A stretch of DNA of 24,000 nt from Massilia sp. NR 4-1. Its GTDB lineage: Bacteria > Pseudomonadota > Gammaproteobacteria > Burkholderiales > Burkholderiaceae_D. The notes below the pieces were generated by a model. The model worked only from the letters and a program-made list of their open reading frames with translations, did no database searches and was not told where the DNA came from. The position numbers and the translations under genes are program-made. This document shows, one piece after another, positions 1,800-15,811 of this stretch (position 1 is its first letter; each line of letters starts with the position of its first letter). The stretch lies in assembly GCF_001191005.1 (NCBI RefSeq), contig NZ_CP012201.1:3013297-3037296 (forward strand), written 5' to 3'.

Positions 1800-2160
1800 G
1801 GGGACGACCTGGCTTCGACGTGGGTTGCAAAGCAGAACAGGGCATACCGAGGGCTGGTTACCTCGTAAATACACCCAGAAACAAACTAACTGCAAACGAT
1901 AACTCGTACGCACTGGCAGCCTAAGGGCTGTTAGCTCCTCAACGCTTCTTCCCTGGGGCGGGCCGTTAAAAGCTGAGGAGTCATTTACAGGGAATCGCGC
2001 TGCTACGGGTCACTTGGATCAGCGCTAAATTTAAGGTGAATCGCCAGTACAAAGCGTGCACATTCGCGTTGTGCTGGTTAAATTAAAAGATAGTGCTAAG
2101 TATGTAGAACTGTCTGTAGAGTGCTTGCGGACGCGGGTTCGATTCCCGCCGTCTCCACCA
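1800..2160 (+). ncRNA. ssrA: tmRNA (transfer-messenger RNA, SsrA)
   Basis: The 5' GGGGACG pairs with the 3' CGUCUCC to form an acceptor stem with the G3:U alanine identity pair. T-arm is GCGGGTTCGATTCCCGC and the 3' end is CCA at 2158-2160. The internal tag frame encodes ANDNSYALAA followed by TAA. Confidence 0.95.
1892..1924 (+). other. tmRNA proteolysis-tag reading frame (A)NDNSYALAA plus TAA stop
   Basis: GCA AAC GAT AAC TCG TAC GCA CTG GCA GCC TAA read directly. The YALAA C-terminus is the canonical ClpXP/SspB-type tag ending. Confidence 0.9.
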
Positions 2161-2194
2161 AGAATTCTTTTGAAATCAAGTAGTTAGAAATTCG

Positions 2195-2267
2195 AAGGCT
2201 GTCAATTTTGGGGTCGGATGGGGCTGATTAAGCTTCAGAATGACAACAAAATGACAGCCTTTTTTTC
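2195..2267 (+). terminator. Possible ssrA terminator: 10-bp stem (AAGGCTGTCA / TGACAGCCTT) with an unusually long 47-nt loop, followed by a T-run
   Basis: Arms at 2195-2204 and 2252-2261 are perfectly complementary, and the T-run extends to about 2266. The long loop is atypical for an intrinsic terminator. Confidence 0.35.
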
Positions 2268-2547
2268 TTGCCGATCACCGTAGCGACGTCGTTTACATTT
2301 ATCCCCGCTGCGCGTGCTCGCAGGATGCGTCCTACTCAGATAGCGTACACGCTTCCTCGGATGGGTACACAACCCGAAGTGATCACTCCACTCACGGGCA
2401 ATAGTGATTGTCGAGTCTGGAGTAGCCGGTTATGATACGGGTGCAAACTTTTTGCTCCATTTCAATAGATACAAACAGTTTTCCAACATCTTCGAGACCT
2501 TCGGAGTTTTTGCTATTCGAGCTGGCGAAAAAGGTTACAGGTTAAAT

Positions 2548-3906
2548 ATGGTAAAAATAAATAAGAAAAATCAGAGCACTAAACCAACTTTTATCGATGT
2601 ATTTGCTGGATGTGGTGGACTGAGCCTTGGACTAATGAAGTCTGGCTGGAATGGATTATTTGCAGTTGAGCACGATGCGAATGCATTCAAGACATTGCAG
2701 CATAATCTCATCGACAAAAAAGGCCCGTATCAATTTAGCTGGCCGGACTGGCTGCCTCGAACTCCTCATAGCGCAATAGATATATTGCAAAATTACATTA
2801 AGAACTTCGAAGTCTTAGAAGATAAGGTCGATATGCTCGTTGGGGGGCCCCCATGCCAAGGTTTTTCAATGGCAGGACGGCGCGACCCGAACGATCCTCG
2901 CAATAAACTTGTAGAGGCATACTTTGGTTTGGTGAATATGGTAAAGCCACGAATCGTTCTTATCGAGAATGTAAAGGGTATAACGCTCGATTTTGACGAA
3001 AAGAAGGAAGAAGGCGAAGAGCCCGGTAAGATAAATTATGCAAAAAAAATAATAAAAGAATTATCTGAAAATTATACTGTATCCTCTAAGCTAATTGATA
3101 CGTCCCAATTTGGTGTTCCTCAAAAGCGCCATCGATTCTTTATCGTTGCGGTAAGGAAAGACGTCGCGAAGAGTTTTCACCATGATCCGATTAAGCTGAT
3201 TGAAAGTGAGCGACTCTCATTTTTGAGGTCAAAAGATATCGTCAACGTTCCGATTTCGGCAAAAAGTGCGATTTCTGATTTGACAATAGAGCGCTGTGGT
3301 AAGGCAAAAAGCCGTGACAGTGAAGGCTTTGAGGAAATTCGATACGAGGGACCGCTGACTTCATATCAAAAGTTAATGAATTCAGGGAATGTGGAAAACC
3401 CTTCAGATACTCGTTTGGCTCGGCATAAAAAAGAAATCAGGGCTCGATTCAAGAAAATCATGAAGATCTGTCAAGATAGCGGAAGGCTGAATGTCTCGCT
3501 ATCGGCGGAAGTTCGTGCAAGTTTCGGGTTAAAAAAATGCGCAATCAGAGTAATGGACCCAGATAGTCCTTCCCCGACCATTACAAGTATGCCTGATGAC
3601 TTAATTCATTTTAGCGAGGCTCGCACGCTAACGGTTCGAGAAAATGCTCGTATTCAAAGCTTTCCGGACTGGTTTGAATTTAAGGGGAAATATACATCAG
3701 GAGGAGAACGTCGCAAAAGGGAGGTACCACGATTCACTCAAGTAGCAAATGCGGTACCTCCGCTAATGGCAGAGGCTATCGGAGCTACGCTTTTGAATTA
3801 CTACTTTTCATCTAAACTGCCTTTGCAGTCAACGAAGAAAAAATCTGCTCAAATGCCTCTTGCTTCTCAAGCAAAGCTAGCCGTAAATCACGCATCTCCT
3901 CACTAG
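2548..3906 (+). CDS. dcm: DNA (cytosine-5)-methyltransferase, Dcm/type II family, 452 aa from ATG 2548
   Basis: All canonical C5-MTase motifs are present. Motif I is FIDVFAGCGGLSLG. Motif IV is GGPPCQGFS, with the catalytic Cys codon at 2854-2856. Motif VI is ENVKG and motif VIII is QKRHRFFIVA. Motif IX is TLTVRENARIQSFPD and motif X is QVANAVPP. ATG 2548 is preferred over the GTG at 2404 because conserved motif I starts about 14 aa after it and an AGG lies about 6 nt upstream. Confidence 0.9.
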   Translation: MVKINKKNQSTKPTFIDVFAGCGGLSLGLMKSGWNGLFAVEHDANAFKTLQHNLIDKKGPYQFSWPDWLPRTPHSAIDILQNYIKNFEVLEDKVDMLVGGPPCQGFSMAGRRDPNDPRNKLVEAYFGLVNMVKPRIVLIENVKGITLDFDEKKEEGEEPGKINYAKKIIKELSENYTVSSKLIDTSQFGVPQKRHRFFIVAVRKDVAKSFHHDPIKLIESERLSFLRSKDIVNVPISAKSAISDLTIERCGKAKSRDSEGFEEIRYEGPLTSYQKLMNSGNVENPSDTRLARHKKEIRARFKKIMKICQDSGRLNVSLSAEVRASFGLKKCAIRVMDPDSPSPTITSMPDDLIHFSEARTLTVRENARIQSFPDWFEFKGKYTSGGERRKREVPRFTQVANAVPPLMAEAIGATLLNYYFSSKLPLQSTKKKSAQMPLASQAKLAVNHASPH

Positions 3907-4732
3907 TAAACTCCTCTCCTTTTTTGTTAAGGAGTTTCCTAGAAAACCCTTCTATCTCTACGCGGATATGTGCCAAATCATTTCGTTTTGGCATTATTTT
4001 TTCGGCGTACTCTAGCATGACCTTGTCCTGCTCATCGTAACCACCTACCAGCCTTAATGCCTTGCGTAGTAAATGCAACCGATCCGCACTTGTGTATACC
4101 AAATGCTTTTCGAATAATTGCGAAATATGGTTAATTTTCTGAAGTTCTTCCACGTTTTCATCAAACGCGTTTTTTATTTTCGCTACCTTTTCTAAAATCT
4201 TTTTAATTACTTCTTGCTGAGTTTTTGCATCACTGTTTTCGAAGATATGTAGCAAACTATCATTTACATAGTGGTCAATATCGCTGGTTGCTCCCATGAC
4301 AAGACCTCTTGAATGATCGATGTCAAGAACCTTCTTTACCAGAGACTGGAAAACTCCGTCAGCAGTATCCGGCAAATCATCTCTGCTAGATAAATATACA
4401 CCACTCACATCTGCGGCTTTTAGATATTCACGTAAATTATTTGCTTGTGCGGAATAAAATATGACGTCTTTATATGGCAGTGTCCGGCGTACTTCTTTTA
4501 ATCCCTCGTCACCATTTGGCCCGTTGTCCAAATTGTAATCCATCAGGATAAGATCGATATGGTCGGAAAATACGTTATCAGTAATGTAATTTTTAGCCTC
4601 TTCGACTGAGATGGCAAATTGAACCTTTAGGCGAAACCCTTCTGACCGAATAAGTCGCTCTAACTTCTCCTTTTGGGCTTGCACACTCTGTTGCAAGTCC
4701 TCAACCCATAGAATGTTAAAGTCTAGTCTCAT
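3812..4732 (-). CDS. Response-regulator receiver (REC) domain fused to a C-terminal helical domain with a HEPN-like Rx4H motif (RNDLAH); no DNA-binding output recognised
   Basis: REC features: N-terminal ILWVED acidic pair (E11/D12), phospho-acceptor context LILMDYNL (D65), and VIFYSAQ (S93). The C-terminal domain has KRNDLAH (R250..H255, codons 3985-3968), the RN-x-x-A-H form typical of HEPN RNases. AGGA lies 8 nt upstream of the ATG. The ATG overlaps the upstream stop as ATGA. Confidence 0.75.
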   Translation of the reverse strand: MRLDFNILWVEDLQQSVQAQKEKLERLIRSEGFRLKVQFAISVEEAKNYITDNVFSDHIDLILMDYNLDNGPNGDEGLKEVRRTLPYKDVIFYSAQANNLREYLKAADVSGVYLSSRDDLPDTADGVFQSLVKKVLDIDHSRGLVMGATSDIDHYVNDSLLHIFENSDAKTQQEVIKKILEKVAKIKNAFDENVEELQKINHISQLFEKHLVYTSADRLHLLRKALRLVGGYDEQDKVMLEYAEKIMPKRNDLAHIRVEIEGFSRKLLNKKGEEFTSEEMRDLRLALLEKQEAFEQIFSSLTAKAV

Positions 4733-7101
4733 TTTGAAATCCTAATTAAAAAGTGTGCACCCCGCCCGTTCTCACCGCTTGAGACGTCTATAGAGCCATT
4801 CATTTCGCCAAGAACGTGCTTAACATGATACAAGCCGAGCCCTGATCCATCGGTGGTAGAAAAGCCTTTTTCAAAAACTCTATCAAGCTGTTCAATCTTG
4901 TTATTAAATCCTTTTCCATCATCAAACACTTCTATGTGCAGGCCATCTTTATTAGGGTGGCTAATTTTGAACGTCATCGTTCCAGCACGGGCTTTTTTCG
5001 CGTTTGCAACAAGATTATCTATAACAACCGAAATGTCGATAGGTTTGAATTTTTGAACAAATTGTTTCCCATCATTTTCTACTTTAATCTCCATAGGGCC
5101 ATGGAGAAAATCACGAACCACTCCCTCTATATATTGCTCAATGTAACTACCAACGTCTGCTTCAATTTTTTCCGACGCCAATCTAAAATTGGCTTTGGTG
5201 GCAAACTTGGAAACTCCCATAATGCGCTTATTTATTAGCGCAACTCGCTCAAGAGCGTTAACAACTTCTTCGGTAGAAACCGTTTCTTTCCCAGCAATTC
5301 GCACCAAGAAATTCTCTATCTGCTGATTGATATCTACAGAGTAAATTGTTACCTGATGATGAAGATTAAGAATCGTATCGGTGTCTAACGTAGAAATTGA
5401 AGCGAGAAAGAGATTACGTTTCTTTTCTTCCGCTAATTGTTCTTTTACCGTTGCTGACGCATGTTCCGCTGCACGTGCCCGCTCTAATGCCGCTTCTTTA
5501 GCAGTGCGTTCCTCATCAGCTTGACGTCTTGCAGCCTCTTCAGATCGTCGCAATTCGTCAAATTTTCGTTCTGCCGACTCAATATTCTGAAAAAGCTCGG
5601 CATCCTTAGTTTTTTCTGCAATTGACCTTAGGCTTGCCAACGAGCCTTCAAACTGCGACGACCGTTCGTCTAAAATATTGATTAATTTCTTGCTGTACTC
5701 AAGTAGTTCAATCTCGTCACTATCAACAAGTTTGGCGACTGCAGTTGCTACCCGCGCTCTACCTGGGTCCGTCAACAATCTAGATATATCGCTTGTATTC
5801 TTATCTTCCTTGTCGATGAAAGTAACGGGGACTACATAGCGCTCCAGTCGCTTCAAACAATGCTCATGAAAGCATTTCTTTAATTGAGCTACCGCTAGTG
5901 TCTCAATAAGACCAGTATCTCGGCTGGAAGACTCATGAAAATCGTCATCGGCTCCTGAAACATCAATCCGACCGATTACATCTCGCGTTCCTAAGAAACG
6001 TGCATAGCCCTGCTGCTTACGCCGATCCATTCCAAACCAATCATCGCCTTCTTCGCCAATTGGAAAGACTCGAAAGCCATTTCTAAATAGAAAAACTGCA
6101 CCGAATTGAACGGAAGGGACTCCCATGCGGCGCGAAAATGTCAGCTTTGCCGATTGATTAAGGAAGAAAATTTGACAACGGAACCCGGACCGAAAAAGTA
6201 ATGGATATTCATTGGGCTCGCGAATTCTGTAGATTAGCTCACTTCGATCAGTCAGTGAGCTTTCAATAAAGTTTCCACTTGGGTCAATTCGAACATCGAT
6301 GAAGGTAGTTTTTTCTTGCAGCGTAGAAAAGATGAAATTTCCTACGGGACCATTTGCAACCGAGTTAGGGGAAATCTCAAATTCTTTTCGTTCTGAGTTC
6401 GTGATTTCAATTTGGTCTTGACGTAACTCTGAAGGAGCGTGAACTACAATGTTGAAACCATCGGCTTCGGCTCCGAAGGGGTTTATCAATTTCGCGAGCG
6501 CAGATTTGAGCCGCAGAATTGAATCTCTATCCCATTCCCGACGAGTGTTCTCAATAGTCAGGACAGTGCCATGCGATCGTGTCGCTATGCCTTCCGGTAA
6601 TTCGAAATTGTCTAACTCTGCAGAGTAAGCAACTTCGATATTTTCGAAGCGCTCCTTATGGTCGCGATCGAAGAGATTCCAGTCGACAACCAACAAATGC
6701 ACCGGCTTTTGATCTTCAGTTTGGTGCCGGGTCTGAAGTTTGACTATTTGACCCAGACGGTCGGAGGAGAAACGACCAATTCCCTTACTGCCTGCGTAGT
6801 GGTGACGCTCCGCGATATCATCGCGAAACCCGCCCAACCTCGTCTGGCCACGCTTTGATGAGTAAGCAACAAACAACCACTTATTGCGAATATCATCGTA
6901 GGTCATTCCTATACCGTTGTCGGCCACTACAATGGTGCTATTGCCAAAGTAAAGATCGACCTGACTGGCATCGGCATCGAACGAATTTTTGACAAGCTCA
7001 AAAATTGCGACCTCATCATCCGTGATGAGATCGCTACCTAGCACGCTCTTGAGCCCACTACTTACGTCAAAGTGCAGGTCAGGGGCCTCGTCATTTGTCA
7101 T
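4729..7101 (-). CDS. 790-aa dual-GHKL protein: N-terminal MutL/MORC/Hsp90-clade ATPase, central domain, coiled coil, and C-terminal histidine-kinase catalytic module
   Basis: N-terminal Bergerat motifs are ELVKNSFDADA (E35/N39/D42), VADNGIGM (D61) and GSKGIGRF. A charged heptad-like stretch (about residues 500-565) reads ERKFDELRRSEEAARRQADEERTAKEAALERARAAE. The candidate H-box is ILNLHHQV (H581/H582, codons 5361-5356). HK N-box is VIDNLVANAKKA, G1 is VFDDGKGF and G2 is DGSGLGLY. Codon usage is AT-rich like the island. Confidence 0.8.
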   Translation of the reverse strand: MTNDEAPDLHFDVSSGLKSVLGSDLITDDEVAIFELVKNSFDADASQVDLYFGNSTIVVADNGIGMTYDDIRNKWLFVAYSSKRGQTRLGGFRDDIAERHHYAGSKGIGRFSSDRLGQIVKLQTRHQTEDQKPVHLLVVDWNLFDRDHKERFENIEVAYSAELDNFELPEGIATRSHGTVLTIENTRREWDRDSILRLKSALAKLINPFGAEADGFNIVVHAPSELRQDQIEITNSERKEFEISPNSVANGPVGNFIFSTLQEKTTFIDVRIDPSGNFIESSLTDRSELIYRIREPNEYPLLFRSGFRCQIFFLNQSAKLTFSRRMGVPSVQFGAVFLFRNGFRVFPIGEEGDDWFGMDRRKQQGYARFLGTRDVIGRIDVSGADDDFHESSSRDTGLIETLAVAQLKKCFHEHCLKRLERYVVPVTFIDKEDKNTSDISRLLTDPGRARVATAVAKLVDSDEIELLEYSKKLINILDERSSQFEGSLASLRSIAEKTKDAELFQNIESAERKFDELRRSEEAARRQADEERTAKEAALERARAAEHASATVKEQLAEEKKRNLFLASISTLDTDTILNLHHQVTIYSVDINQQIENFLVRIAGKETVSTEEVVNALERVALINKRIMGVSKFATKANFRLASEKIEADVGSYIEQYIEGVVRDFLHGPMEIKVENDGKQFVQKFKPIDISVVIDNLVANAKKARAGTMTFKISHPNKDGLHIEVFDDGKGFNNKIEQLDRVFEKGFSTTDGSGLGLYHVKHVLGEMNGSIDVSSGENGRGAHFLIRISK

Positions 7102-7150
7102 AGGATTCCAGTGCTGAAGTTGGTTACTGGTAACAATTTATCAAAGAAGC

Positions 7151-7156
7151 ATTATA
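7151..7156 (-). promoter_or_regulatory. Possible -10 (TATAAT on the minus strand) for the kinase/receiver operon
   Basis: A perfect TATAAT lies about 45 nt upstream of the ATG at 7101, but I found no good -35 at 16-18 bp spacing. Confidence 0.25.
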
Positions 7157-7183
7157 TTCCAGGTTGCAAGCAGTTGTGGCACT

Positions 7184-7584
7184 TTAAGTGATAAAGTGGT
7201 TCTCTTTTAGCAATTTTTCTTGTTGCGCAATCAATCCTTTGCTACATCCAACTAGCTCCATAATTTCGCTTCAGCTGGACACACCTGCTTTTAAATGCTT
7301 TTGAATCAAAAGATTCCGTTCATGGTTCGGCTTTCGTCCTTGATATTTTCCTGCGCTTTGTGCTTTTCGGACTCCTTGCGCAACTCGTTCCCGCCTAGTT
7401 AAGTAATCTTTTCTTGCAACAGCTGCTAGCATACCTAACATCATTCCATTCAAGGCAGTGAATACACTTGATGTAAATTCATCATGTTTGATCATCGCCC
7501 AGGACGTAGGAAGATCTAATGCTACAACTCTGATGGATTTTTCTGCCAGGTGACTTTTTAAAAGATTCCAATCGAATTCTTTAA
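7184..7584 (-). pseudogene. Serine recombinase (resolvase/invertase family) relic, C-terminal portion, with an in-frame TGA before the HTH
   Basis: The minus-strand frame reads ...KEFDWNLLKSHLAEKSIRVVALDLPTSWAMIKHDEF...MMLGMLAAVARKDYLTRRERVAQGVRKAQSAGKYQGRKP...KAGVSS. A TGA follows at 7273-7271. The same frame then continues SEIMELVGCSKGLIAQQEKLLKENHFIT to a TAA at 7186-7184, which looks like the resolvase C-terminal HTH. The 5' side is cut by the IS at about 7585. Confidence 0.7.
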
Positions 7585-8797
7585 GGAAGCGCTGATTTAA
7601 TCGTCGCCCCGTGCCTGCAACTCTGCGTCAAGCTGCCACAATGTCGGCTTACTAACTGCGAGACCAGTTCATGCAATCGAGCTTTTCCGACGCCGAGTAC
7701 GCCAGCAAGAAGAAGCCTACGCGGCGTGACCGTTTCCTGGCCGAGATCGAGGCCGCCACGCCGTGGCCGGCGCTGGTGGCGGCGATCCTGCCTTACTATC
7801 CCAAGGGCGATGGCCGTGGCCGCCCACCAATCGGCCTGGAGCGCATGCTGCGCATGTACATTGCCCAGCAGTGCTTCGGCCTTTCGGACGAGGGCGTCGA
7901 AGATGCCATCTACGACAGCCAGGCGATTCGCGGCTTTGTCGGCATCGATCTGACGCACGAATCGGCGCCTGACGCGACCACGCTGCTGAAGTTCCGGCGC
8001 TTGCTGGAGAAGAACAATTTGACCCGGCGCATCTTCAACGAAATCAACGGCCACCTGGCCAGCAAAGGCCTGACGATGCGCGAAGGCACCATCGTGGACG
8101 CCACCTTGATCGCCGCGCCGCCATCGACCAAGAACGCGATGGCGAGCGCGATCCGGAAATGCACCAATCGAAGAAAGGCAATGACTGGCACTTCGGCATG
8201 AAGGCGCACGTCGGTGTGGACGTGGCCAGTGGCCTGGTGCACAGCGTTGTGGGCACCGCTGGCAATGTGGCCGACGTGACGCAGGCGCATGCGCTGCTGC
8301 ACGGCGGCGAGGTGATCGCGATGGGCGATGCGGGCTATCAGGGCGTGGCCAAGCGGCCCGAGAATGCTGGCTCGGCCGTCGTGTGGCCCCCCCCCATGCG
8401 CCCCGGCTTGCGTAAGACGCTCAAGAAGGACAAGCTTGGCCGCGCCACCGAAAGGCTGGAACAAACTAAGGCCAGCGTGCGCGCCAAGGTCGAGCACTGC
8501 TTCCACGTTGTCAAATGCCTGTTCCGCCATCGCAAGACCCGTTATCGTGGACTGGCCAAAAATGCGGCGCAGCTGTTCTCCTTATTCGCGCTGGCCAATC
8601 TGGTGCTGGCACGCAGATTCCTCGGCAGCGCTCACACCCAAGTTGCATCCCGAGTTTGAAAAAGCGGCAAAGGCCATGTTGAAAACAGGCTTTTTCGCTC
8701 TGCAGCCAGTCATGTTTCCTGATTTTGATATCGCTGCGCCGACGTGGCTCTCACAGCGGCCCTGCTGGCGTCGGAAACTGAATTGTTCAGCGGCTCC
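7585..8797 (+). mobile_element. IS5-family insertion sequence, about 1.2 kb and GC-rich, with imperfect terminal inverted repeats
   Basis: The left end is GGAAGCGCTGATTTAATC. The reverse complement of the right end is GGAGCCGCTGAACAATTC. The flanking tetranucleotides TTAA (7581-7584) and CTAG (8798-8801) both fit the YTAR target preference of IS5-group elements but are not identical. The internal DDE transposase is IS5-like. Confidence 0.75.
7671..8659 (+). pseudogene. IS5-family DDE transposase, disrupted by a 1-nt frameshift near 8135
   Basis: Frame 1 reads ...TIVDATLIAAPPSTKN, then drifts. The next frame continues (R)DGERDPEMHQSKKGNDWHFGMKAHVGVD...GDAGYQG...RAKVEHCFHVVK...RYRGLAKN, which gives the DDE signature of the IS5 group. 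Joining the two frames needs one extra C in AAC-(C)GC-GAT at about 8135. Confidence 0.8.
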
Positions 8798-8801
8798 CTA
8801 G

Positions 8802-8889
8802 CTTCGTGATTAACATCGTTTGAATCAATAACAATCTTGCCGTCTTTCGTTTGCTCAAGCCATTTATTTATTGCAATGGAGTTATTCAT
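8802..8889 (-). pseudogene. N-terminal fragment of the IS-split recombinase relic (MNNSIAINKWLEQTKDGKIVIDSNDVNHE)
   Basis: Removing the IS plus one 4-bp flank (1217 bp) joins this frame in phase to the 7584 fragment. The pattern KDGKIVIDSNDV resembles the gD-x-lvV-x-x-lDR strand of resolvases but with degenerate residues. A stop lies 4 codons upstream of the ATG, so the catalytic-Ser N-terminus is absent. No Shine-Dalgarno sequence is seen. Confidence 0.4.
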
Positions 8890-8920
8890 AAATATATATC
8901 ACTGAACCAGTCCAGAAACC

Positions 8921-9044
8921 TGGGGGCACCACGATTTAAGATAGTCGAGATGCGCCACCGCGACAGTTGGGGGACGCATGAACTGCGCCACTTTGACAGT
9001 CAAAAAATGGCGCAGTTTATCGAACCGCGCCACAATTGCGCCAC
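8921..9044. repeat. Cluster of short repeats: four direct GCGCCAC copies and one inverted copy, a 17-bp direct repeat pair, two TGGGGG copies, and a nested 37-bp palindrome (8981-9017)
   Basis: GCGCCAC occurs at 8952, 8985, 9027 and 9038, with an inverted GGCGCA at 9009-9014. TGCGCCACCGCGACAGT (8951-8967) matches TGCGCCACTTTGACAGT (8984-9000) at 14/17 positions. AACTGCGCCA (8981-8990) pairs with TGGCGCAGTT (9008-9017), enclosing TTTGAC-A-GTCAAA (8992-9004). Confidence 0.7.
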
Positions 9045-9071
9045 CTGGAATGCAAACGACACAAGCAATCG

Positions 9072-9521
9072 TTAATCCACCACGTTCAACTTCACCTGTG
9101 CCCCATCCGGCAAATCCTGCATCTGCCGCGCCACATCGCCCGACAGGCGGATCAGCTCATGCAAAGGCGCGCTTGCCAGATTCTCCGCCTTATACTCCCC
9201 ACCAAGCACGCCCGGGATTTTCAGGCAGTACTTGCGGCCCTCGGTCAACGGTCCGCAATGCTCGCGCGCGATCTTGGTCAAGCCGGCCATATGCCAGTCC
9301 TGCAAAAAGTCCTGATCGGCCGACAGCACGTCGAGCGCCTGGCGGTCGGACGCCACCACCGCGCAGCTGCATTCTTCCGGCATCAGCCGCCAATAGCGGC
9401 CCTGGACATCCTTGATGATCAGATTGCCGAAATCATTTTCCCCCACCACCTCCAGCGCCTGCAGTCCCGCCCAGCCCCAGCTTTCGTTCAACTCTTTGAT
9501 GATATCCATACGTCCTGCCAT
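9072..9521 (-). CDS. DUF1851-like (Tdi1 C-terminal-like) domain protein, 149 aa
   Basis: The pattern GNLIIKDVQGRYWRL ... CGPLTEGRKYCLKIPGVLGGEYKAENL...LHELIRL resembles the DUF1851 signature (GPL..dE.YGF.P...LGG....NL). Codon usage is GC-rich and host-like. The family call is from memory only. Confidence 0.5.
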   Translation of the reverse strand: MAGRMDIIKELNESWGWAGLQALEVVGENDFGNLIIKDVQGRYWRLMPEECSCAVVASDRQALDVLSADQDFLQDWHMAGLTKIAREHCGPLTEGRKYCLKIPGVLGGEYKAENLASAPLHELIRLSGDVARQMQDLPDGAQVKLNVVD

Positions 9522-9593
9522 CTCTCTTTCTTGGCGGCGCCATCGCGCCGGCTGATAAAATTACCGTTCAGAAATTATTTTACTGCCTATCCC

Positions 9594-10391
9594 ATGAAAC
9601 GATTGCTCCACTGCCTTTTGCTCACCCTGCTTGGCGCCAGCTATCTCGCCTCGGCTGGCGAACTGGAAGAATATGCCCGCGCCGCCAACCGTCTGGCCAC
9701 GCTGAGCCAAGTCGCCCAGCAGGAGGGCAAGACGCCACCGCGTATCACGGAAGGCGAAGGCAAAGAGCTGATCGCCCTGCTGTCCAACCGGCAGCGCTTC
9801 CTCGATTCCCGCAGCGTTGCGCCAGGCGAGCTCAATGAACTCAGCTTATTGTGCGGCGAAATGACCAAGGCCATGATGAACTACATGATGTTCGATCTGC
9901 AGCGCATCGACCGCAGCAATAAGGATCCGGCAGCCTTGTCCGCTGCCGTGGCGGCCGCGGCGCGGGAGAACATCCAGCGCTATCAGGATGAAATAGCGCT
10001 GCTGATGCCCATGCCGGTCCTATGCATGGGCAAGCAGCTCCCCTTGTTGGAACAATTCCTCACAACCCTGAAGCCGGAGGAGATCACCGAAACGCGGCAA
10101 CGGGGCATCGCGATGACGCAAAACGGCCTGCTCAACAGCATGCTCGGCGCCCTGACCGGCATTGGCGATCCAAGCGTGCGCGAAGAGAATCAGCTCAAGA
10201 TGCTGAATGTGCTGGCCGAGGTCGCACCAGTGTACGCGGCGGCACTGCCACTCAACAACCGTTCCTACATCACCGCCCTGGCCCGCACGGCTTTGCTCAA
10301 TAGCCCCCCCGCCTTCACCGACGCCCTGCTGCGCATCCTCGCGGCCATGGAAAACATGGAGTGCACGGGGCTGTGCAGCCGCACTTCATAA
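9594..10391 (+). CDS. Hypothetical exported protein, 265 aa, with a Sec-type signal peptide
   Basis: MKRLLHCLLLTLLGASYLASAG is a typical signal sequence. The upstream part of the 9036 ORF overlaps the 9072-9521 gene on the other strand and is discounted. Confidence 0.6.
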   Translation: MKRLLHCLLLTLLGASYLASAGELEEYARAANRLATLSQVAQQEGKTPPRITEGEGKELIALLSNRQRFLDSRSVAPGELNELSLLCGEMTKAMMNYMMFDLQRIDRSNKDPAALSAAVAAAARENIQRYQDEIALLMPMPVLCMGKQLPLLEQFLTTLKPEEITETRQRGIAMTQNGLLNSMLGALTGIGDPSVREENQLKMLNVLAEVAPVYAAALPLNNRSYITALARTALLNSPPAFTDALLRILAAMENMECTGLCSRTS

Positions 10392-10431
10392 TCGGCCAGC
10401 TTAAGCTGAATTAAGAATCGTCGTACCGGCT

Positions 10432-10461
10432 TTGAGTCATGCAAAAATCCCATGCTAGAAT
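10432..10461 (+). promoter_or_regulatory. Possible sigma70 promoter (TTGAGT, 18-nt spacer, TAGAAT) ahead of the DUF2946 gene
   Basis: Hexamers read directly. The -10 lies only about 10 nt from the ATG at 10471, so the mRNA would be almost leaderless, which lowers confidence. Confidence 0.25.
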
Positions 10462-10470
10462 CGGCCGCGT

Positions 10471-10854
10471 ATGAATATGAACGGAACAATACGACGCTGC
10501 GCCGCCTGGCTCGCCTTCATGGCGATCCTCTTCGCCGCGCTCGTGCCTTCCGTTTCGCGCGCCATGGCGCCGGCTGGCGACAGCGGCTGGACCGAAATCT
10601 GCACCATGCAGGGCGCCAAATTCGTCAAGATCGGCGGCGATAGCGGCCAGCCATCCGGCGACAGCGCTCAGCATCTGGAACATTGCCCCTTCTGCTTCAC
10701 CCAGCACGACACCGTGGGCTTGCCGCCTACGCCAGCGCTCACTCTGCATCTCGCGGCCGGCAACGCGATTTACCCTCCCCTCTTCTACCAGGCGCCACGC
10801 CGCCTCTTCATCTGGTCCGCCGCGCAGTCACGCGCACCACCGGCCCATTCCTGA
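10471..10854 (+). CDS. DUF2946-family small exported protein (HCPFC motif)
   Basis: N-terminal hydrophobic signal/anchor (CAAWLAFMAILFAALVPSVSRAMA) and the characteristic LEHCPFC motif. It sits immediately upstream of a TonB-dependent receptor, as is common for this family. Confidence 0.65.
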   Translation: MNMNGTIRRCAAWLAFMAILFAALVPSVSRAMAPAGDSGWTEICTMQGAKFVKIGGDSGQPSGDSAQHLEHCPFCFTQHDTVGLPPTPALTLHLAAGNAIYPPLFYQAPRRLFIWSAAQSRAPPAHS

Positions 10855-10972
10855 TCCCGCAGCACCCGTCTGACCTGCATTGAAGCAGGCTGTTTGCGCG
10901 CGCGCCTTGCCGTCCGGGCCATGCCCTGCGCCGCACCGCGCCAAGTACGCCATTAGAAGAAGAAAGCACATC

Positions 10973-13090
10973 ATGAACTACCGCCCTAGCGCCATCTGCC
11001 TCGCCCTGCTGTCCGCCTTCTCCGCCAACGCCTTGGGCGCCGACGAAACACCCGGCATGGAAATTGTCGTCGTCAGCGGCTCGCGCGCCGTCACCAAATT
11101 GTCCGAAACGCCAAGCGCCATCGGCATCGTCAGCGGCCGCGAGATGGAGCGCGACAAGCCCAAGACCATGGGCGATATCCTCAACCGCGTCGCCGGCGTG
11201 CACTGGAATGACCTGGGCAATGAGCAGCACAGCATGGCGATCCGCCAGCCCATCGGCACCGGCTCGGTGTACCAGTATCTGGAAGACGGCATTCCTATCC
11301 GCCCGCTGGGCGTGTTCAACCACAATTCGCTGAACGAGATGAATATCGCCGGCAGCGACAGCGTGGAAGTGGTGAAAGGGCCGGCCTCCTCGCTGTACGG
11401 CAGCAATGCCGTGGGCGGCGCCATCAATGCGCTGACCGCCGCCCCTTCACGCACGCCGTATGCGCGCATCGGCGCGCGGCATGAAGGCGTGTCCGGCTTT
11501 ACGCGCTACGACACGGCGGCCAGCAATACCTGGGGCGATTTCGGTCTGCGCTTCTCGCATTACAGCTCACGCCGCACTTCAAATAACTGGCAGGAGTACA
11601 GCTACGGCGACAAGGATTCCTTCACCCTGCGCGCCGACTATGCGCTGGGCAATGCCGGCATCGTGCGCGCCACCCTGGTGCGCACCGATCTGGATGCGGC
11701 CATGCCGGGCAGCCTGTTCGAAAACGACTATCAGAACAATCCCGGCAAGAGTCTGAACACCTTCACCTACCGCAAGGACAAGACCACGCGCGGCACCGTG
11801 GCCTGGGAAGGCGATACCACGCCAGGCGGCACCACCACTGTCACCCTCTTCACGCGCCGCAACGACCATGGCCAGATCCCGAGCTACACCATCGGCAGTT
11901 GCGCCGGCAGCATCTGCAAGGGCACGCTGAACAACAGCCACGTCGATTCGCGCGGTCTGGACGTGAAGCATCTGCAGGAATTCGCCTGGCTGAATTCGCG
12001 CCTGGTCACGGGCATCTACATCGACCGCAGCGACAATCCCTACTACAGCGACAATCTGCGCATCGTGCGCGATCCGACCAGCGGCCGTTATCTGAGCTAC
12101 ACCCGCGTCAACGACAGCCAGCCGCAAGGCGTACGCGATTACCAGGCCGACATCGACAACACCGCCTTCTTCGCGCAATGGGAAGCGTCGCCGCTGCCCA
12201 AGCTGCGCGTGGTGGCGGGCGGCCGCTCCGACCGCATCCGCTATGACTTCCGCAACAATCTCTCGCCGCAGGGCAGCGCCAACTACGGCGCGCCGAACGA
12301 GAGCCGCAGCTTCTCGCGCTTCAGCCCCAAGCTGGGCGCCAGCTATGTGCTGGGTGCGGACGCCAATGCGTATGCGAATATCAGCGAAGGCTTCACGCCG
12401 CCGGAGGTGAGCCAGATGTATGGCAAGACCGGCATTCCCGACCTGCAGCCCGCCACCTACCGCAGCGTGGAAGTGGGCCTGCGCCTGGCCTTCCTCGACC
12501 GCAAGCTGCGCCTGGACTCCTCGCTCTACCGGCTGGTGGGACGCGACACCATCGTCAGCTACACCATCACGCCGGGCAATAGCGAAAACCGCAATGCCGG
12601 ACGCACGCGCAGCCAGGGTTTGGAGCTGGGCCTGAACTACGACAACGGCCCGCTCGACGCGCGCTTCAGCACCGCCATCGCCAGCCATCGCTATGAGCGC
12701 TATCGCGTCTCCGCCACCCAGGACTTCAGCGGCAAGGACATGCCGCAGGCGCCGCGCGATATGACCAGCGCCGAAGTCGGCTACAAGCCGATACCGGACC
12801 TGCGCATTGCGCTGGAAGCCGTGCACCAGGGCGCCTACTGGATGGACAATGCCAACACCGTGCGCTATCCCGGCCACGCGCTCTTCCACCTGCGCGCCGC
12901 CTACCGCTTCATGCAGGGCTGGGAAGCCTGGGTCCATGTGCGCAACCTGGGCGACAAGCACTACTCCGATTCCGCCTCCAGCTCCTACTCCGGCGTTGGC
13001 GCCTACTCGCCCAACACCCAGAACCAGTACACGCCCGGCGCGCCGCGCAGCGTGATGCTGGGCCTGTCCTACACCTTCGGCGGCAAGTAA
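10973..13090 (+). CDS. TonB-dependent outer-membrane receptor
   Basis: Signal peptide MNYRPSAICLALLSAFSANALGA. Plug motifs are EIVVVSGSR, ETPSAIGIVSG, VEVVKGPASSLYGSNAVGGAIN. The rest is a long beta-barrel region. ATG 10973 is preferred over the upstream in-frame start at 10880. Confidence 0.85.
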   Translation: MNYRPSAICLALLSAFSANALGADETPGMEIVVVSGSRAVTKLSETPSAIGIVSGREMERDKPKTMGDILNRVAGVHWNDLGNEQHSMAIRQPIGTGSVYQYLEDGIPIRPLGVFNHNSLNEMNIAGSDSVEVVKGPASSLYGSNAVGGAINALTAAPSRTPYARIGARHEGVSGFTRYDTAASNTWGDFGLRFSHYSSRRTSNNWQEYSYGDKDSFTLRADYALGNAGIVRATLVRTDLDAAMPGSLFENDYQNNPGKSLNTFTYRKDKTTRGTVAWEGDTTPGGTTTVTLFTRRNDHGQIPSYTIGSCAGSICKGTLNNSHVDSRGLDVKHLQEFAWLNSRLVTGIYIDRSDNPYYSDNLRIVRDPTSGRYLSYTRVNDSQPQGVRDYQADIDNTAFFAQWEASPLPKLRVVAGGRSDRIRYDFRNNLSPQGSANYGAPNESRSFSRFSPKLGASYVLGADANAYANISEGFTPPEVSQMYGKTGIPDLQPATYRSVEVGLRLAFLDRKLRLDSSLYRLVGRDTIVSYTITPGNSENRNAGRTRSQGLELGLNYDNGPLDARFSTAIASHRYERYRVSATQDFSGKDMPQAPRDMTSAEVGYKPIPDLRIALEAVHQGAYWMDNANTVRYPGHALFHLRAAYRFMQGWEAWVHVRNLGDKHYSDSASSSYSGVGAYSPNTQNQYTPGAPRSVMLGLSYTFGGK

Positions 13091-13106
13091 ACGAGGGAGA
13101 TGGGAG

Positions 13107-13129
13107 GGCTGCCGCCAGGTGCGGCAGCC
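13107..13129. terminator. GC-rich hairpin between convergent genes (GGCTGCCGC-caggt-GCGGCAGCC)
   Basis: Perfect 9-bp stem with a 5-nt loop, located between stops at 13090 (+) and 13142 (-). There is no clear U-tract on either side. Confidence 0.5.
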
Positions 13130-13141
13130 GGGGGGATGTGC

Positions 13142-13837
13142 TTACAGTGCCACTGCGGAAGCGCGGCGGCGGCGGGCGAAGCCGGCAACCAGCAGGCCGG
13201 TGGCGATCAGCAGCAGGGAGCTGGGTTCAGGTACTTTGGCGCTCAGCGACACATTGTCGATGGCCAGGCCGGCCATGCCGGTCCAGCTCTGCGGAATGTA
13301 GTTGGAGAAGCGCAGGGTCAGGTTTTCGCCCTGATGCGAGGCCAGCAAGGCGCTGACATTGATGCTGCGCGCATCCCAAGCCGTGCTGCTGTCGTTGGCG
13401 ACGTCGTAGCTGAACACATTGCCCAGCAGCGTCGTGCCTTGCAGGATATCGACCTTGAAGCTGCGCGCCTGGCCGGAATAGCTCGCCACGATGGAGTCGC
13501 TCCAGGACAGGGTGGCTTCCTTCAGGCCTTGCGGCACGAAGAAAGTCTGCGCCAGCGTGTAATTGGTCTTGGCCGTGCCATCGTTCATGACGTAGGCGGC
13601 ATAGCTGCCATCAAACGGATTGCCGACCGTAGCGCAGCCGGTGGCGCTGCCCGTCCTGGCCACATTCCAGTCACGGCCGGCGCTGGCGCAGGTGCCGGTG
13701 CTGCCCAGGCCCGAGGTGGTCCAGCCATTCAGATTGCCCGTCTCAAAACTGCCATTGCTCAGAAGCTGGATCGGACCAGCTTGTACCGCACCTGCCGACA
13801 TCATTGCCGCAACAACAGCAAACTTTACGAATTTCAT
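13142..13837 (-). CDS. PEP-CTERM sorting-domain exported protein
   Basis: Signal peptide MKFVKFAVVAAMMSAGAVQA. C-terminal VPEPSSLLLIATGLLVAGFARRRR is the PEP-CTERM/exosortase sorting signal. Confidence 0.85.
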   Translation of the reverse strand: MKFVKFAVVAAMMSAGAVQAGPIQLLSNGSFETGNLNGWTTSGLGSTGTCASAGRDWNVARTGSATGCATVGNPFDGSYAAYVMNDGTAKTNYTLAQTFFVPQGLKEATLSWSDSIVASYSGQARSFKVDILQGTTLLGNVFSYDVANDSSTAWDARSINVSALLASHQGENLTLRFSNYIPQSWTGMAGLAIDNVSLSAKVPEPSSLLLIATGLLVAGFARRRRASAVAL

Positions 13838-13967
13838 TGTTACTTACCCTTATGCAATTTTCAAAGAAAGCTTGCATAAAGCAAGTTATATGCCATATCC
13901 GTAAGTTATTGATTTTAAAGAAGGTCGATTTCACAGCATTCACCGAGTGTAAAGAAATCCGACACTT

Positions 13968-15140
13968 TTACGCCCGCGCAGCGCGGCTCACCCGTCCCAA
14001 CAGGAAAGGCATGCTGAACAGATACAGCGCCGCGCCGCCCAACCAGACGGCGCCCGGGAACGTGGCACGCGACATGAAATACAGGGTGCTGATGCCGACC
14101 GGCCCGATAATCGTCGCCAGGCTGGCGATGCTGGCCAGCACGCCCTGCAAGCGCCCCTGCTGTTCCGAATCGGTGCCGGCCGACATCAGCGACTGCAGCA
14201 CAGGCGCGCCGATGCCGCCCACGCAGAACACCGGCAGCAGCAGGAAGGCGACCCAGCCCTCGGTTGCCCAGGCGATCGCCGCATAGGCCAGCGCATCGGC
14301 CGTAATCCCGATCAGCAGGGTGCGCCGCTCGCCGTAGCGCTCGGACAGCGGTCCGGCCACGAAAGCCTGGGCCACGGCATGGAACACGCCAAAGCCCGCC
14401 AGCGAGATGCCGATGGTCAGGGAACTCCAGGCAAACTTGTCCTCGCCGTACATGACCCAGACCGTGCCGGCCACCTCGCCCACCAGCGCCAGCACGAAAT
14501 ACACCACCATCAGCGGCAGCAGGGCCGGAAAGCTCAGCGCCCAGCGCAGCGGCGCCAGCGGATTCAAGGGCACCGGTACCGCTTGCGGCGTGCGCGATTC
14601 GCGCATCACGAAGAAGGCCACGACCAGGTTCAGCGCGTCCAGCGCGGCGGCGGCCAGGAAAGGCGCGCGCACCCAGTACTCGCCCAGCAGGCCGCCAATC
14701 ACGGGACCGATGATAAAGCCGACGCCAAAGCAGGCGTTCAACTGGCCGAAACGGCGGCTGCGCTGGTTCTCCGGCGTGACGTCGGCGATATAGGCCGAGG
14801 CCACGGCCAGACTGGCGCCGGTGATGCCGGCGATGGCGCGGCCGAGGAAGAGCAGCGACAGCGAGGGCGCCAGCGCCAGCAGCACGTAATCGATCATCGA
14901 GCCGGCCAGGGACATCAGCAGTACCGGCCGCCGCCCGATGCGGTCGCTCAGCGCGCCCAGGATCGGCGAGAAAATGAACTGCATCAGCGCGTACAGGCCG
15001 GTAAATGCGCCGAAACGCCAGCCCAGTTCGGCAGTGTGGCCCACATCGCGCATCAGTTGCGGAACGATGGGCATGGTCAGCCCGATACCGGCGGCGCTGA
15101 TCACCACCGAACCCATGACTGCGTAAAGTCCTTTGTTCAT
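13968..15140 (-). CDS. tetA: MFS efflux transporter of the TetA (tetracycline/H+ antiporter) family
   Basis: Strong resemblance to TetA class proteins: GIGLTMPIVPQLMRDVGH, YALMQFIFSPILGALSDRIGRRPVLL, GRAIAGITGASLAVASAYIADVT, GFIIGPVIGGLLG. It is divergent from a TetR(tetracycline)-type repressor. Confidence 0.8.
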   Translation of the reverse strand: MNKGLYAVMGSVVISAAGIGLTMPIVPQLMRDVGHTAELGWRFGAFTGLYALMQFIFSPILGALSDRIGRRPVLLMSLAGSMIDYVLLALAPSLSLLFLGRAIAGITGASLAVASAYIADVTPENQRSRRFGQLNACFGVGFIIGPVIGGLLGEYWVRAPFLAAAALDALNLVVAFFVMRESRTPQAVPVPLNPLAPLRWALSFPALLPLMVVYFVLALVGEVAGTVWVMYGEDKFAWSSLTIGISLAGFGVFHAVAQAFVAGPLSERYGERRTLLIGITADALAYAAIAWATEGWVAFLLLPVFCVGGIGAPVLQSLMSAGTDSEQQGRLQGVLASIASLATIIGPVGISTLYFMSRATFPGAVWLGGAALYLFSMPFLLGRVSRAARA

Positions 15141-15149
15141 ATCTCGCTC

Positions 15150-15188
15150 AATTTATCATCGATAAATTAAATTATAAGTGATAAAGTT
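15150..15188. promoter_or_regulatory. Two tandem tetO-like operators in the tetA/tetR divergent promoter region
   Basis: O1 AATTTATCATCGATAAATT (15150-15168) has 8-bp perfect arms and matches Tn10 tetO1 ACTCTATCATTGATAGAGT at about 14/19 positions. O2 AATTATAAGTGATAAAGTT (15170-15188) is a weaker half-palindrome with the AGTGATA core. Confidence 0.6.
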
Positions 15189-15223
15189 TGGTCATAAAAA
15201 GAATTTTTTCGGGATCGGAAAAC

Positions 15224-15811
15224 ATGAAAGTAGAACGCAAGCAGATTGTGGCGGCCGCGCTCGATTTGCTGAACGAAGTCGGCGTCGACAAGCTGTCCAC
15301 CCGCCTGCTGGCCGAACGCCTGGGCGTGCAGCAGCCGGCACTGTACTGGCACTTCAAGAATAAGCGCGCCTTGCTGGACGCAATGAATCTGGAAATCATG
15401 GAGCGCGCCCATCAGCGCACCCTACCGCAAGCGGGCGAAGACTGGCGCAGCTTCCTCGGCGAAAATGCGCGCAGCTTCCGCCGCGCCCTGCTCGACTATC
15501 GCGACGGCGCGCGCCTGCACGCGGGCAGCGAGCCGGTGCCCGACACCCTGCCCGCGCTCGATGCGCAGCTGCGTTTCCTCTGCGAGACTGGCATGGAAAT
15601 GGGAGCCGCCATCGATCTGCTGGTTACGATATCCCATTATGTGGTGGGTTGCGTGCTGGAAGAGCAGGCCGACCATCCCGATCCCACCACGCTCGATGAA
15701 AGTGTGCTCGCCTATCCACAGCTCGCCGCAGCGATGCAGCGCTATCGCCAGCGCAGCCCCGACCAGCACTTCGAAGCCGGCCTCGCCCTCATCCTCAACG
15801 GCGCCGCTTAA
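15224..15811 (+). CDS. tetR: Tetracycline-repressor-type TetR family regulator
   Basis: ALDLLNEVGVDKLSTRLLAERLGVQQPALYWHFKNKRALLDAM closely parallels the TetR(B/D) HTH region. The downstream block DGARLHAGS...LRFLCE...VVGCVLEEQ parallels the inducer-binding core. ATG 15224 is preferred over 15188. Confidence 0.85.
   Translation: MKVERKQIVAAALDLLNEVGVDKLSTRLLAERLGVQQPALYWHFKNKRALLDAMNLEIMERAHQRTLPQAGEDWRSFLGENARSFRRALLDYRDGARLHAGSEPVPDTLPALDAQLRFLCETGMEMGAAIDLLVTISHYVVGCVLEEQADHPDPTTLDESVLAYPQLAAAMQRYRQRSPDQHFEAGLALILNGAA

Follow-up and report, generated by a model that had tools for sequence, protein, structure and literature searches.

A mobile, methylase-linked two-component cassette in Massilia sp. 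NR 4-1 with a double-GHKL histidine kinase and a response regulator carrying a probable HEPN-type domain

Soluble histidine kinases with two GHKL-type ATPase modules, encoded beside DNA methylase genes, have been described before. In 2021, the families HEF_HK (PF19191) and Response_reg_2 (PF19192) were defined (Bellieny-Rabelo, Pretorius and Moleleki, Genome Biol Evol 2021; PMC8011034). The domain order HATPase_c_3+HEF_HK+HATPase_c was found in 174 of the 222 HEF_HK proteins, the genes of the kinases and of response regulator-like proteins were 91.6% linked, and C5 cytosine methylases were conspicuously adjacent to them. According to the authors' proposal, these kinases descend from paraMORCs, use the GHKL head as the sensor and regulate restriction-modification (R-M) systems (PMC8011034). 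Furthermore, Ambrosia, a validated five-gene defence system of Pseudomonas (AbrR-AbrA-AbrB-AbrC-AbrD) that was reported across Gammaproteobacteria only, loses its phage defence upon the substitutions N40A in AbrB and D60A in AbrC, and is read by its authors as a case of transcriptional control (bioRxiv 10.1101/2025.09.30.679545). Here we analyse a related locus in a 24,000-nucleotide stretch of Massilia sp. NR 4-1 (contig NZ_CP012201.1), hereafter the window, whose positions are used as coordinates throughout. Three genes in the window, encoding a C5 methylase, a double-GHKL kinase and a response regulator (RR), are on balance best read as a mobile defence cassette (2548-7101) in which R-M logic is combined with a His-Asp phosphorelay and the output of the RR is a HEPN-type RNase. 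The double-GHKL kinase architecture is not new; the combination of methylase, kinase and a fused receiver (REC)-HEPN protein is apparently the new part. The cassette consists of the following genes.

2548..3906, plus strand: C5 cytosine DNA methyltransferase (Dcm-type, 452 amino acids [aa]), recognised by Pfam, TIGR00675 and PADLOC
3812..4732, minus strand: response regulator of 306 aa with a receiver domain and a probable HEPN RNase domain
4729..7101, minus strand: soluble double-GHKL sensor histidine kinase of 790 aa, with an ATG start

The kinase had been noticed in an earlier inspection of the bare DNA (the sequence-only reading), which described two Bergerat-fold ATPases of different GHKL clades in one open reading frame (ORF), joined by a charged coiled coil and a helix with a His pair, and called this an unusual signalling architecture. 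The extent of the ORF stands, to which we add that it lies on the minus strand, a point the reading did not state. All motifs that it quoted were found in place by a direct check of the translation: ELVKNSFDADA (residues 35-45), VADNGIGM (59-66) and GSKGIGRF (104-111) in the head, NGFRVFPIGEEGDDWFGMDRRKQQGY (341-366) in the middle region, and ILNLHHQV (577-584, containing H581 and H582), DNLVANAKKA (695-704), DDGKGF (727-732) and GSGLGLY (752-758) in the transmitter. The parts of the protein and the residues referred to below are located as follows.

6487..7026, minus strand: N-terminal MutL/Hsp90/HgiDII-type GHKL ATPase head (aa 26-205; HATPase_c_3)
6997-6999, minus strand: head residue E35
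6985-6987, minus strand: head residue N39
5902..6459, minus strand: alpha/beta middle domain (aa 215-400; secondary structure of the AlphaFold2 [AF2] model)
5395..5601, minus strand: long charged helix (coiled coil) between head and transmitter (aa 501-569)
5218..5382, minus strand: DHp-like helical hairpin (aa 574-628; AF2 and Foldseek)
5356-5358, minus strand: candidate phospho-acceptor H582
4735..5166, minus strand: histidine-kinase catalytic ATP-binding (CA) domain (aa 646-789; HATPase_c)
5002-5004, minus strand: CA residue N700

Both GHKL matches are far beyond chance. Pfam places HATPase_c_3 on aa 30-161 (E = 1.7e-22; 80.3 bits, cutoff 25) and HATPase_c on aa 687-788 (E = 4e-22; 79.2 bits, cutoff 26.4), which is the pair of domains anticipated for the two termini. 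In NCBIfam and PDB sequence searches the N-terminal part resembles the head of the BbrUII/HgiDII restriction enzymes, MutL, HtpG and sacsin. The BbrUII/HgiDII head match (NCBIfam) has E = 5e-20 over aa 21-221, and PADLOC recognised in the kinase only a partial type II restriction enzyme head (REase_II). The protein is not a full-length BbrUII/HgiDII restriction enzyme, as the match is confined to profile positions 13-199 of 659 and scores 71.6 bits against a cutoff of 550. The C-terminal part is similar to ZraS, DcuS, PhoR and EnvZ (NCBIfam), and its CA domain has PDB sequence matches to ZraS, EnvZ, SrrB and PrrB. In the AF2 model (32 homologues in the input; pLDDT 70.7), residues 401-500 form a helical region, residues 500-569 consist to 44% of D, E, K and R, and helices at 582-602 and 610-628 form a hairpin; the charged coiled coil and the DHp-like hairpin behind it are both visible in this model, as had been predicted. 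Foldseek searches against the PDB aligned the kinase with Hsp90/GRP94 and the SMCHD1 ATPase module over 480-540 columns at low TM-scores, and with the DHp+CA cores of WalK/YycG, HK853, EnvZ chimeras and ZraS over about 245 columns at target-normalised TM-scores of 0.55-0.62. Sequence (Pfam, NCBIfam, PDB) and fold (Foldseek) agree on two Bergerat-fold modules from different GHKL clades.

The architecture is no fusion or assembly artefact, because more than 120 full-length kinase homologues with 66-90% identity carry both Pfam domains and divergent relatives share them. The homologues, at 66% identity or above, stem from Alpha-, Beta-, Gamma- and Deltaproteobacteria and Ignavibacteriales, and the architecture is also kept in relatives of 29-57% identity at 17 further loci. 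The two ways in which sequence analysis might have overturned the proposed architecture, a region that is not of the GHKL fold and an artefact restricted to this assembly, can be set aside. The kinase has no transmembrane segment, as no 19-residue window exceeds a Kyte-Doolittle mean of 0.94, and neither PAS nor any other sensor domain was detected in it by a Pfam scan and by relaxed scans of the middle and DHp regions, in line with the expected lack of a membrane or PAS input. Judged from its domain content, the input module appears to be the second, MutL/Hsp90-type ATPase.

Residue conservation was followed in an alignment of 18 kinases with 29-100% identity to the query. In the head, E35, N39, D42, D61, G63, G65, G104, K106, G107, G109 and R110 are invariant in all 18, as are N696, N700, F743, G752, G754 and G756 in the CA domain, where D727, G729 and G731 are kept in 17 of the 18. 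The head thereby has the Bergerat-fold motifs ExxxNxxD (with catalytic Glu and Mg-binding Asn) and DxGxG and a Gly-rich ATP lid, and the CA domain has the N, G1, F and G2 boxes. Both ATP sites look catalytically competent, because these residue sets are conserved down to 29% identity. The sequence-only reading had offered the His pair as the possible phospho-acceptor, and the pair can now be narrowed to one residue: H582 is invariant in all 18 kinases down to 29% identity, and H581 is replaced by L, M, N or an alignment gap in seven of them, which makes H582 the likely acceptor candidate and speaks against H581. A motif of the middle domain, NGFRVxPxGE..DD...RRKxQG, is near-invariant among the 18 kinases (N341, F343, R344, P347, G349, D354, R361, K362 and G365). 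This domain has no Pfam match in a relaxed scan and no PDB sequence match, and it may be transducer-like.

Compared with the HEF_HK systems, the Massilia kinase shares the soluble arrangement of HATPase_c_3, a central H-box hairpin and HATPase_c, together with a linked receiver-like gene and neighbouring C5 methylases. The sequence-only reading therefore overstated its case in calling the architecture unusual and, by implication, new, since it was published in 2021 (PMC8011034) and also occurs in AbrB of Ambrosia; the published proposal that the GHKL head is the sensor anticipates the central idea of that reading. However, the window kinase differs from HEF_HK proteins in that PF19191 was not found on aa 480-690 at E values up to 10, nor on the full-length protein or its relatives, and in the residue that follows the core histidine, which is acidic (E/D) in HEF_HK and Q, H or L after H582 in the 18 kinases. 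With AbrB (747 aa, annotated with HATPase_c_3 and HATPase_c) the relationship is one of distant homology and not of orthology: AbrB aa 9-213 align with residues 8-214 of the query at 27% identity (E = 2e-18), and the middle-domain motif is shared by eye. The alignment places AbrB N40, the residue needed for phage defence in Ambrosia, opposite N39 of the query.

The RR gene lies directly downstream of the kinase gene in all 24 distinct loci for which sequence is available at that position. The two genes share 4 bp (ATGA), in which the kinase stop and the RR start lie, and the RR is translationally coupled to the kinase. The following parts of the RR are considered here.

4379..4732, minus strand: receiver (REC) domain (aa 1-118)
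4538-4540, minus strand: REC phospho-acceptor D65
3815..4375, minus strand: HEPN-like helical effector domain (aa 120-306)
3968-3985, minus strand: motif R250-N-D-L-A-H255

The AF2 model of the RR (pLDDT 85.6) has a complete (beta-alpha)5 receiver fold at residues 1-116, and Foldseek aligned it with receiver domains at about 3-4 Å over about 130 residues. The Pfam family Response_reg (PF00072) matches the query below its cutoff (E = 7.8e-6; 26.5 bits, cutoff 30.2), and was found in 46 of 56 divergent RR members; cREC_REC was matched by five of the 56. Among 17 partner RRs down to 20% identity, D12, D65, R142, G143, R250, N251 and H255 are invariant, position 11 is conserved as D or E, and all 17 have S or T at position 94. 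The acidic pocket, the phospho-acceptor Asp ending beta3 and the Ser/Thr ending beta4 that mark a receiver domain are in place. Position 117 is R or K in 16 of the 17, mostly R and not the Lys that is canonical after beta5. PF19192 was not among the families found in the 56 members, which also separates the partner from Response_reg_2. Furthermore, Response_reg_2 proteins have no other known domain, whereas the RR described here has a HEPN-like one, a domain type on which PMC8011034 is silent. As the window proteins match neither PF19191 nor PF19192 and lack the acidic residue after the histidine, they are not members of the 2021 families and therefore represent a sister lineage. The top viral structural match to the RR model in BFVD is A0A8S5LY51 (Myoviridae sp.), a 'response regulator protein' of 298 aa whose alignment spans 271 columns and hence nearly the full length of the RR, not the receiver alone; it could be a phage- or prophage-borne RR homologue or a decoy.

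The C-terminal domain of the RR, which was modelled as all-helical (residues 120-305), is probably a HEPN-type RNase domain, to judge from its motif and its profile matches. HEPN domains are defined by an Rx4-6H motif, usually with a polar residue after the R, at the end of core helix 3 (PMC3710099). R250-N-D-L-A-H255 is an Rx4H motif with Asn after Arg, its RNxxxH pattern is invariant in 17 of 17 RRs down to 20% identity, and in the AF2 model it closes the helix 233-253, before a beta-hairpin that leads to the last helix, a position that matches the published description (PMC3710099). When the isolated domains of 27 members were compared with Pfam, the most recurrent matches were to three HEPN families, namely HEPN_MAE_28990 in six, HEPN_RiboL-PSP in four (best E = 5.8e-4) and HEPN_LA2681 in two members. 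These alignments cover most of the domain, for example positions 38-180 of 191 in the RiboL-PSP profile. Divergent RRs add weak Pfam matches to HEPN_Swt1 and HEPN_Apea, and the most divergent RR matches DUF4145 (E = 3.6e-4) and a HepT-like ribonuclease family (E = 2.9e-3), in both cases across the motif. HepT belongs to the HEPN toxins. For DUF4145, an overlap with a HEPN family has been noted (PMC3710099). In total, seven HEPN-type Pfam families make up the recurrent matches, and no family of a different fold recurs likewise. PADLOC models point in the same direction, with Csx1 in 9 of the 27 members and, in addition, Cas13-ApeA and CARF_HEPN. A profile search of 1.84 billion representatives yielded 481 relatives of the domain, nearly all of them proteins of about 305 aa in which it occupies residues 123-305, so that they repeat the REC-plus-domain layout of the RR; the best 150 of the 481 matches all belong to the same family and provide no link to named HEPN families. 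The most conserved stretch of the domain, aa 131-150 (4283-4342, minus strand; KKVLDIDHSRGLVMGATSDIDH), is modelled with the lowest confidence in the whole protein (pLDDT about 61-63) and could act as a hinge or as a dimer interface, changing its arrangement upon phosphorylation.

The third gene encodes an active-looking methylase, with strong matches to Pfam DNA_methylase (E = 2.6e-53), TIGR00675 dcm (E = 1.2e-42) and PADLOC MTase_II (E = 3e-81), and with the sequence motifs I (FAGCGG), IV (PPCQ), VI (ENV) and VIII (QKRHR) intact. The mechanically called ORF starts with GTG at 2404; homology to other cassettes begins at 2528, and ATG 2548 is the likely start. A terminator-like hairpin at 2490-2506 lies within the spurious 5' extension of the ORF (2404-2547, plus strand). 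The methylase and RR genes are convergent, with 95 bp of overlap between their 3' ends. To judge its linkage, loci from GTDB genomes, public assemblies and IMG/VR were gathered via the kinase or the RR only, never via the methylase, and annotated with family hidden Markov models (HMMs). Of 24 informative loci, 22 have a C5 methylase next to the kinase-RR pair, arranged in one of four gene orders.

12 loci: methylase convergent, downstream
4 loci: methylase co-directional, upstream
3 loci: methylase divergent, upstream
3 loci: methylase co-directional, downstream

The linkage survives rearrangement and therefore argues for a functional coupling. Besides the three genes, the cassette contains no XRE gene, no HNH gene and no separate nuclease gene. 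In a contig of 2.7 kb (L012, 15-2576), a single ORF of 846 aa (P0359) matches the kinase HMM, the receiver and the HEPN-like domain; this protein could be a natural kinase-RR fusion, that is, a hybrid kinase with RNase output, or a frameshift artefact.

The cassette is horizontally mobile. It recurs in many phyla, and nucleotide homology to the closest relative, from Janthinobacterium, does not extend beyond 2528-7165. Kinase relatives are encoded on thirteen IMG/VR contigs predicted to be viral or proviral, most of which also have the RR and a methylase. In Methylobacter (L009, 7001-16385) the cassette is the cargo of a Tn7-like transposon, because it is adjoined by TnsA, TnsB-like, TniB and TniQ genes; here, a Vsr (very-short-patch repair) gene lies between the RR and the methylase. 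In Ignavibacteriales the cassette adjoins a WYL gene. As regards the kinase itself, the sequence-only reading was structurally right, and it missed the RR partner, the linked C5 methylase and the mobile island, which determine the protein's purpose.

Taken together, the cassette is most likely an R-M-like abortive-infection module, which might function as follows. An infection cue, possibly foreign DNA that lacks the cassette's methylation, would switch the ATP-dependent conformational or dimerisation state of the kinase head, and this change would be passed along the coiled coil to the DHp. The CA domain would then phosphorylate H582, from which the phosphoryl group would move to D65 of the RR. 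Dimerisation of the receiver could assemble or unmask the R250/H255 HEPN site, and the ensuing RNA cleavage would arrest the infected cell or stop the invader. Should the methylase be lost, these connections would also render the cassette addictive. Of all its steps, the scheme is weakest in what it assumes about the cue. That methylation is read is suggested by the methylase linkage and by the nearest sequence relatives of the head, which are restriction-enzyme heads and MutL. In its most specific form, the scheme would have a MORC/Hsp90-like clamp ATPase that reads the cytosine methylation of incoming DNA, relays from H582 to D65 and switches on the receiver-fused HEPN RNase, the 'restriction' arm having been replaced by signalling; we regard this full version as a tentative and rather doubtful one.

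Several observations weigh against the defence reading as a whole or against one of its steps. With regard to the phosphorelay, the residue after H582 is not acidic as it is in HisKA-type H-boxes, relaxed scans found no HisKA, HEF_HK or other DHp Pfam family on the DHp region of the kinase, and residues 568-592 have a pLDDT below 50 in the AF2 model. With regard to the cassette, it has no convincing match to any PADLOC 2.0 model, and DefensePredictor lists an E. coli pair of double-GHKL kinase and receiver protein solely as a predicted novel defence gene that bears no DS system name. Two loci, L001 and L013, have the kinase-RR pair without a recognisable methylase, so that the methylase is perhaps not a required component; in L013, the gene that precedes the kinase gene was considered as a possible methylase and has no Pfam support. 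The pair in L001, a metagenome-assembled genome of Massilia (3533-17409), is 83-85% identical to that of Massilia sp. NR 4-1 and sits in a conjugative element with a TraG-type coupling protein, an LPD7 polyvalent protein and an 1843-aa ORF, which suggests that the methylase is dispensable there or supplied in trans. With regard to the cue, methylation by AbrA did not protect phage in Ambrosia (bioRxiv 10.1101/2025.09.30.679545), which argues against a simple model for the class in which unmethylated DNA is the trigger. With regard to the output, finally, all HEPN profile matches remain below the Pfam gathering score, no PDB sequence was matched by the full RR, by the profile of its C-domain or by the most divergent RR, and a Foldseek search of the RR model against BFVD returned receiver-domain matches only, none of which isolated the C-domain.

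The points on the output would suit a C-domain that is not a nuclease and serves as a helical interaction or oligomerisation module acting on an unlinked target, and so would the low model confidence of its most conserved stretch (aa 131-150). However, at 20-30% identity the invariant residues of the domain reduce to R142, G143, R250, N251 and H255, a pattern typical of active sites; it is HEPN-type families, seven from Pfam together with Csx1 of PADLOC, and no other fold family that recur among the matches; and the motif lies where the HEPN definition requires it. We therefore consider a non-nuclease domain unlikely, though it is the alternative that fares best.

A second alternative takes the cassette for a post-segregational-killing module, in which loss of the methylase would leave the genome unmodified and thereby activate the kinase and the RNase toxin, phage defence being incidental or absent. 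R-M systems can act as addiction modules, as discussed in PMC8011034, and the tight methylase linkage with overlapping 3' ends as well as the presence of the cassette on a Tn7-like element and on proviral contigs, and of the kinase-RR pair on a conjugative element, are what such a module would lead one to expect. Yet methylation as the only safeguard is hard to square with the two methylase-less loci, and we deem killing as the main function improbable; all its molecular steps are common to the defence reading, so that the two are not exclusive.

Equally improbable, in our estimation, is a head that does not act on DNA and instead senses nucleotide pools or a phage protein, or works as a chaperone-like clamp, with the methylase as a separate, co-travelling defence gene. 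Sensing of NTPs has been speculated upon (PMC8011034), the head's structural matches include Hsp90/GRP94 as much as DNA-acting GHKL proteins, and the failure of AbrA methylation to protect phage from Ambrosia would be readily explained. By sequence, however, the closest relatives of the head are BbrUII/HgiDII (E = 5e-20), REase_II of PADLOC and MutL, and the methylase linkage was kept through four gene rearrangements, which points to functional coupling.

A regulatory two-component system that controls how the methylase or R-M genes next to it are expressed, or how active they are, is the least probable alternative: although both earlier papers favour such a role (PMC8011034; bioRxiv 10.1101/2025.09.30.679545), AbrC is described with a wHTH, the Ambrosia genes are induced on infection and the methylase linkage would be compatible with it, Pfam scans of the full RR and its C-domain detected no DNA-binding domain, which disfavours a classical transcription-regulating system, the RR has instead a 185-aa C-domain with an invariant RNxxxH and HEPN-like matches and no similarity to AbrC, and the cassette offers no separate nuclease gene to regulate.

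The defence reading places the cassette in a class of methylase-linked double-GHKL two-component defence systems, from whose other members it is distinguished by its atypical DHp and its fused REC-HEPN-like output. With Ambrosia it has in common an R-M-type methylase, a double-GHKL kinase and a receiver protein. Found in Ambrosia alone are a separate HNH nuclease, a methylase of the N6-adenine type, an XRE regulator and a REC protein of 209 aa that is reported to contain a wHTH; the window cassette has a C5 methylase, neither XRE nor HNH, and an RR that is unrelated to AbrC and carries the HEPN-like domain in the same polypeptide. As only the kinases are distantly homologous, and methylase type, RR and nuclease differ, the two systems are not identical. 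An Ambrosia-like gene order of HTH protein, Eco57I-type methylase, double-GHKL kinase, small REC protein and HNH protein was observed on plasmid P2 of Deinococcus gobiensis (L032, 2901-8514). Lineages from Stenotrophomonas, Acaryochloris and Hymenobacter have kept the methylase and the double-GHKL kinase and changed the output, and on a Hymenobacter plasmid (L033, 1-11152) a related kinase lies beside a Piwi/pAgo gene and two methylases.

More remote parallels concern single features. Detocs (DtcA-DtcB-DtcC) likewise uses phosphotransfer from a soluble kinase to a receiver-fused enzymatic effector in defence; its effector domain is swappable and usually a PNP ATP nucleosidase (bioRxiv 10.1101/2023.01.24.525353). 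TPR sensing by DtcA, the buffer receiver DtcB, the PNP effector and the lack of a methylase are found in Detocs only, and the window cassette, which contains neither TPR nor PNP domains and lacks a third receiver gene, does not belong to it. The paraMORC, BbrUII and HgiDII enzymes (Iyer, Abhiman and Aravind 2008, PMC2292703; NCBIfam) share the N-terminal MutL/MORC-type GHKL ATPase and its occurrence in R-M neighbourhoods; unlike in the GHKL-headed restriction enzymes, no nuclease domain is fused to the head here. The Ymh proteins, which occur in R-M neighbourhoods, are paraMORC ATPases with a HEPN domain attached directly to their C-terminus, and have been proposed to be analogous to PrrC/RloC (PMC3710099). 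In the Massilia cassette, in contrast, GHKL head and HEPN-like domain reside on separate proteins that would be joined by the proposed His-Asp phosphorelay. Like the HEPN effectors and toxins HepT, RiboL-PSP, MAE_28990, Csx1/Csm6 and Abi, the RR domain, modelled as a helical bundle, has an Rx4-6H motif in which R is followed by N and which closes core helix 3. These HEPN families are found in defence, R-M and mobile-element settings.

Cyclic oligoadenylates, antitoxins and CRISPR RNAs (crRNAs) are the recognised regulators of HEPN nucleases. In the openly searchable (non-subscription) literature we found no description of a receiver-fused, phosphorylation-regulated HEPN family or of this three-gene cassette, and the fused REC-HEPN output appears to be undescribed. 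If the HEPN assignment is correct, the RR would be the first HEPN nuclease to be gated by phosphorylation, which would stand beside cyclic oligonucleotides, antitoxins and guide RNAs among the controls of such enzymes, and annotators would have grounds to drop the labels 'hypothetical protein' and 'CheY-like' for about 900 sequence clusters at 90% identity (about 480 at 50%). If methylation is indeed read, the cassette would link the discrimination of self and non-self DNA directly to an RNA-targeting abortive response. Made up of three genes, with the output fused to the receiver and neither a transcription factor nor a separate nuclease, this lineage is the simplest form of the class, which makes testable the question of what the MutL/Hsp90-type head senses and how it gates the histidine kinase; the read-out would be biochemical (phosphorylation-dependent RNase activity) and not transcriptional.

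In Massilia sp. NR 4-1 the cassette lies in a low-GC island of 5.5 kb (2161-7670) that directly abuts a tmRNA gene. The GC content is 42.9% in the cassette, 63.8% in the left flank and about 63% in the flanks, and the drop starts directly downstream of the tmRNA gene. Genes of tmRNAs are well-known integration sites of islands. The surroundings of the cassette comprise the following features.

1800..2160, plus strand: tmRNA (ssrA) gene (ARAGORN; Rfam RF00023, 217 bits), at the left island edge and given as context
7271..7600, minus strand: truncated serine-recombinase remnant, identified from its translation, upstream of the kinase gene and inside the low-GC island
7671-8201 and 8159-8659, plus strand: IS5-family transposase in two overlapping ORFs, at the right island edge

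A search for att-like direct repeats returned no copy of the tmRNA 3' end on the far side and nothing convincing at the island borders, and a promoter and terminator scan gave no more sites than in shuffled sequence. The recombinase remnant resembles the C-terminal two-thirds of a resolvase/invertase without the N-terminal catalytic part, has weak PDB matches (E about 0.5) to Tn3 resolvase and Bin3 invertase in their C-terminal regions, and may be what is left of a gene that once mobilised the island. The IS5 transposase (DUF772, E = 2.2e-21; DDE_Tnp_1, E = 1.7e-24; NCBIfam IS5, E = 1.3e-40) has a host-like GC content of 63.3%, and its split into two ORFs could reflect a frameshifted pseudogene or programmed frameshifting. 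The high GC content and the origin of the closest cassette relatives, Janthinobacterium and Massilia, suggest an Oxalobacteraceae-like host. The flanking host genes look ordinary and include those of a HAD-family hydrolase (125-682), a TonB-dependent receptor (10880-13090) and an MFS transporter (13968-15140).

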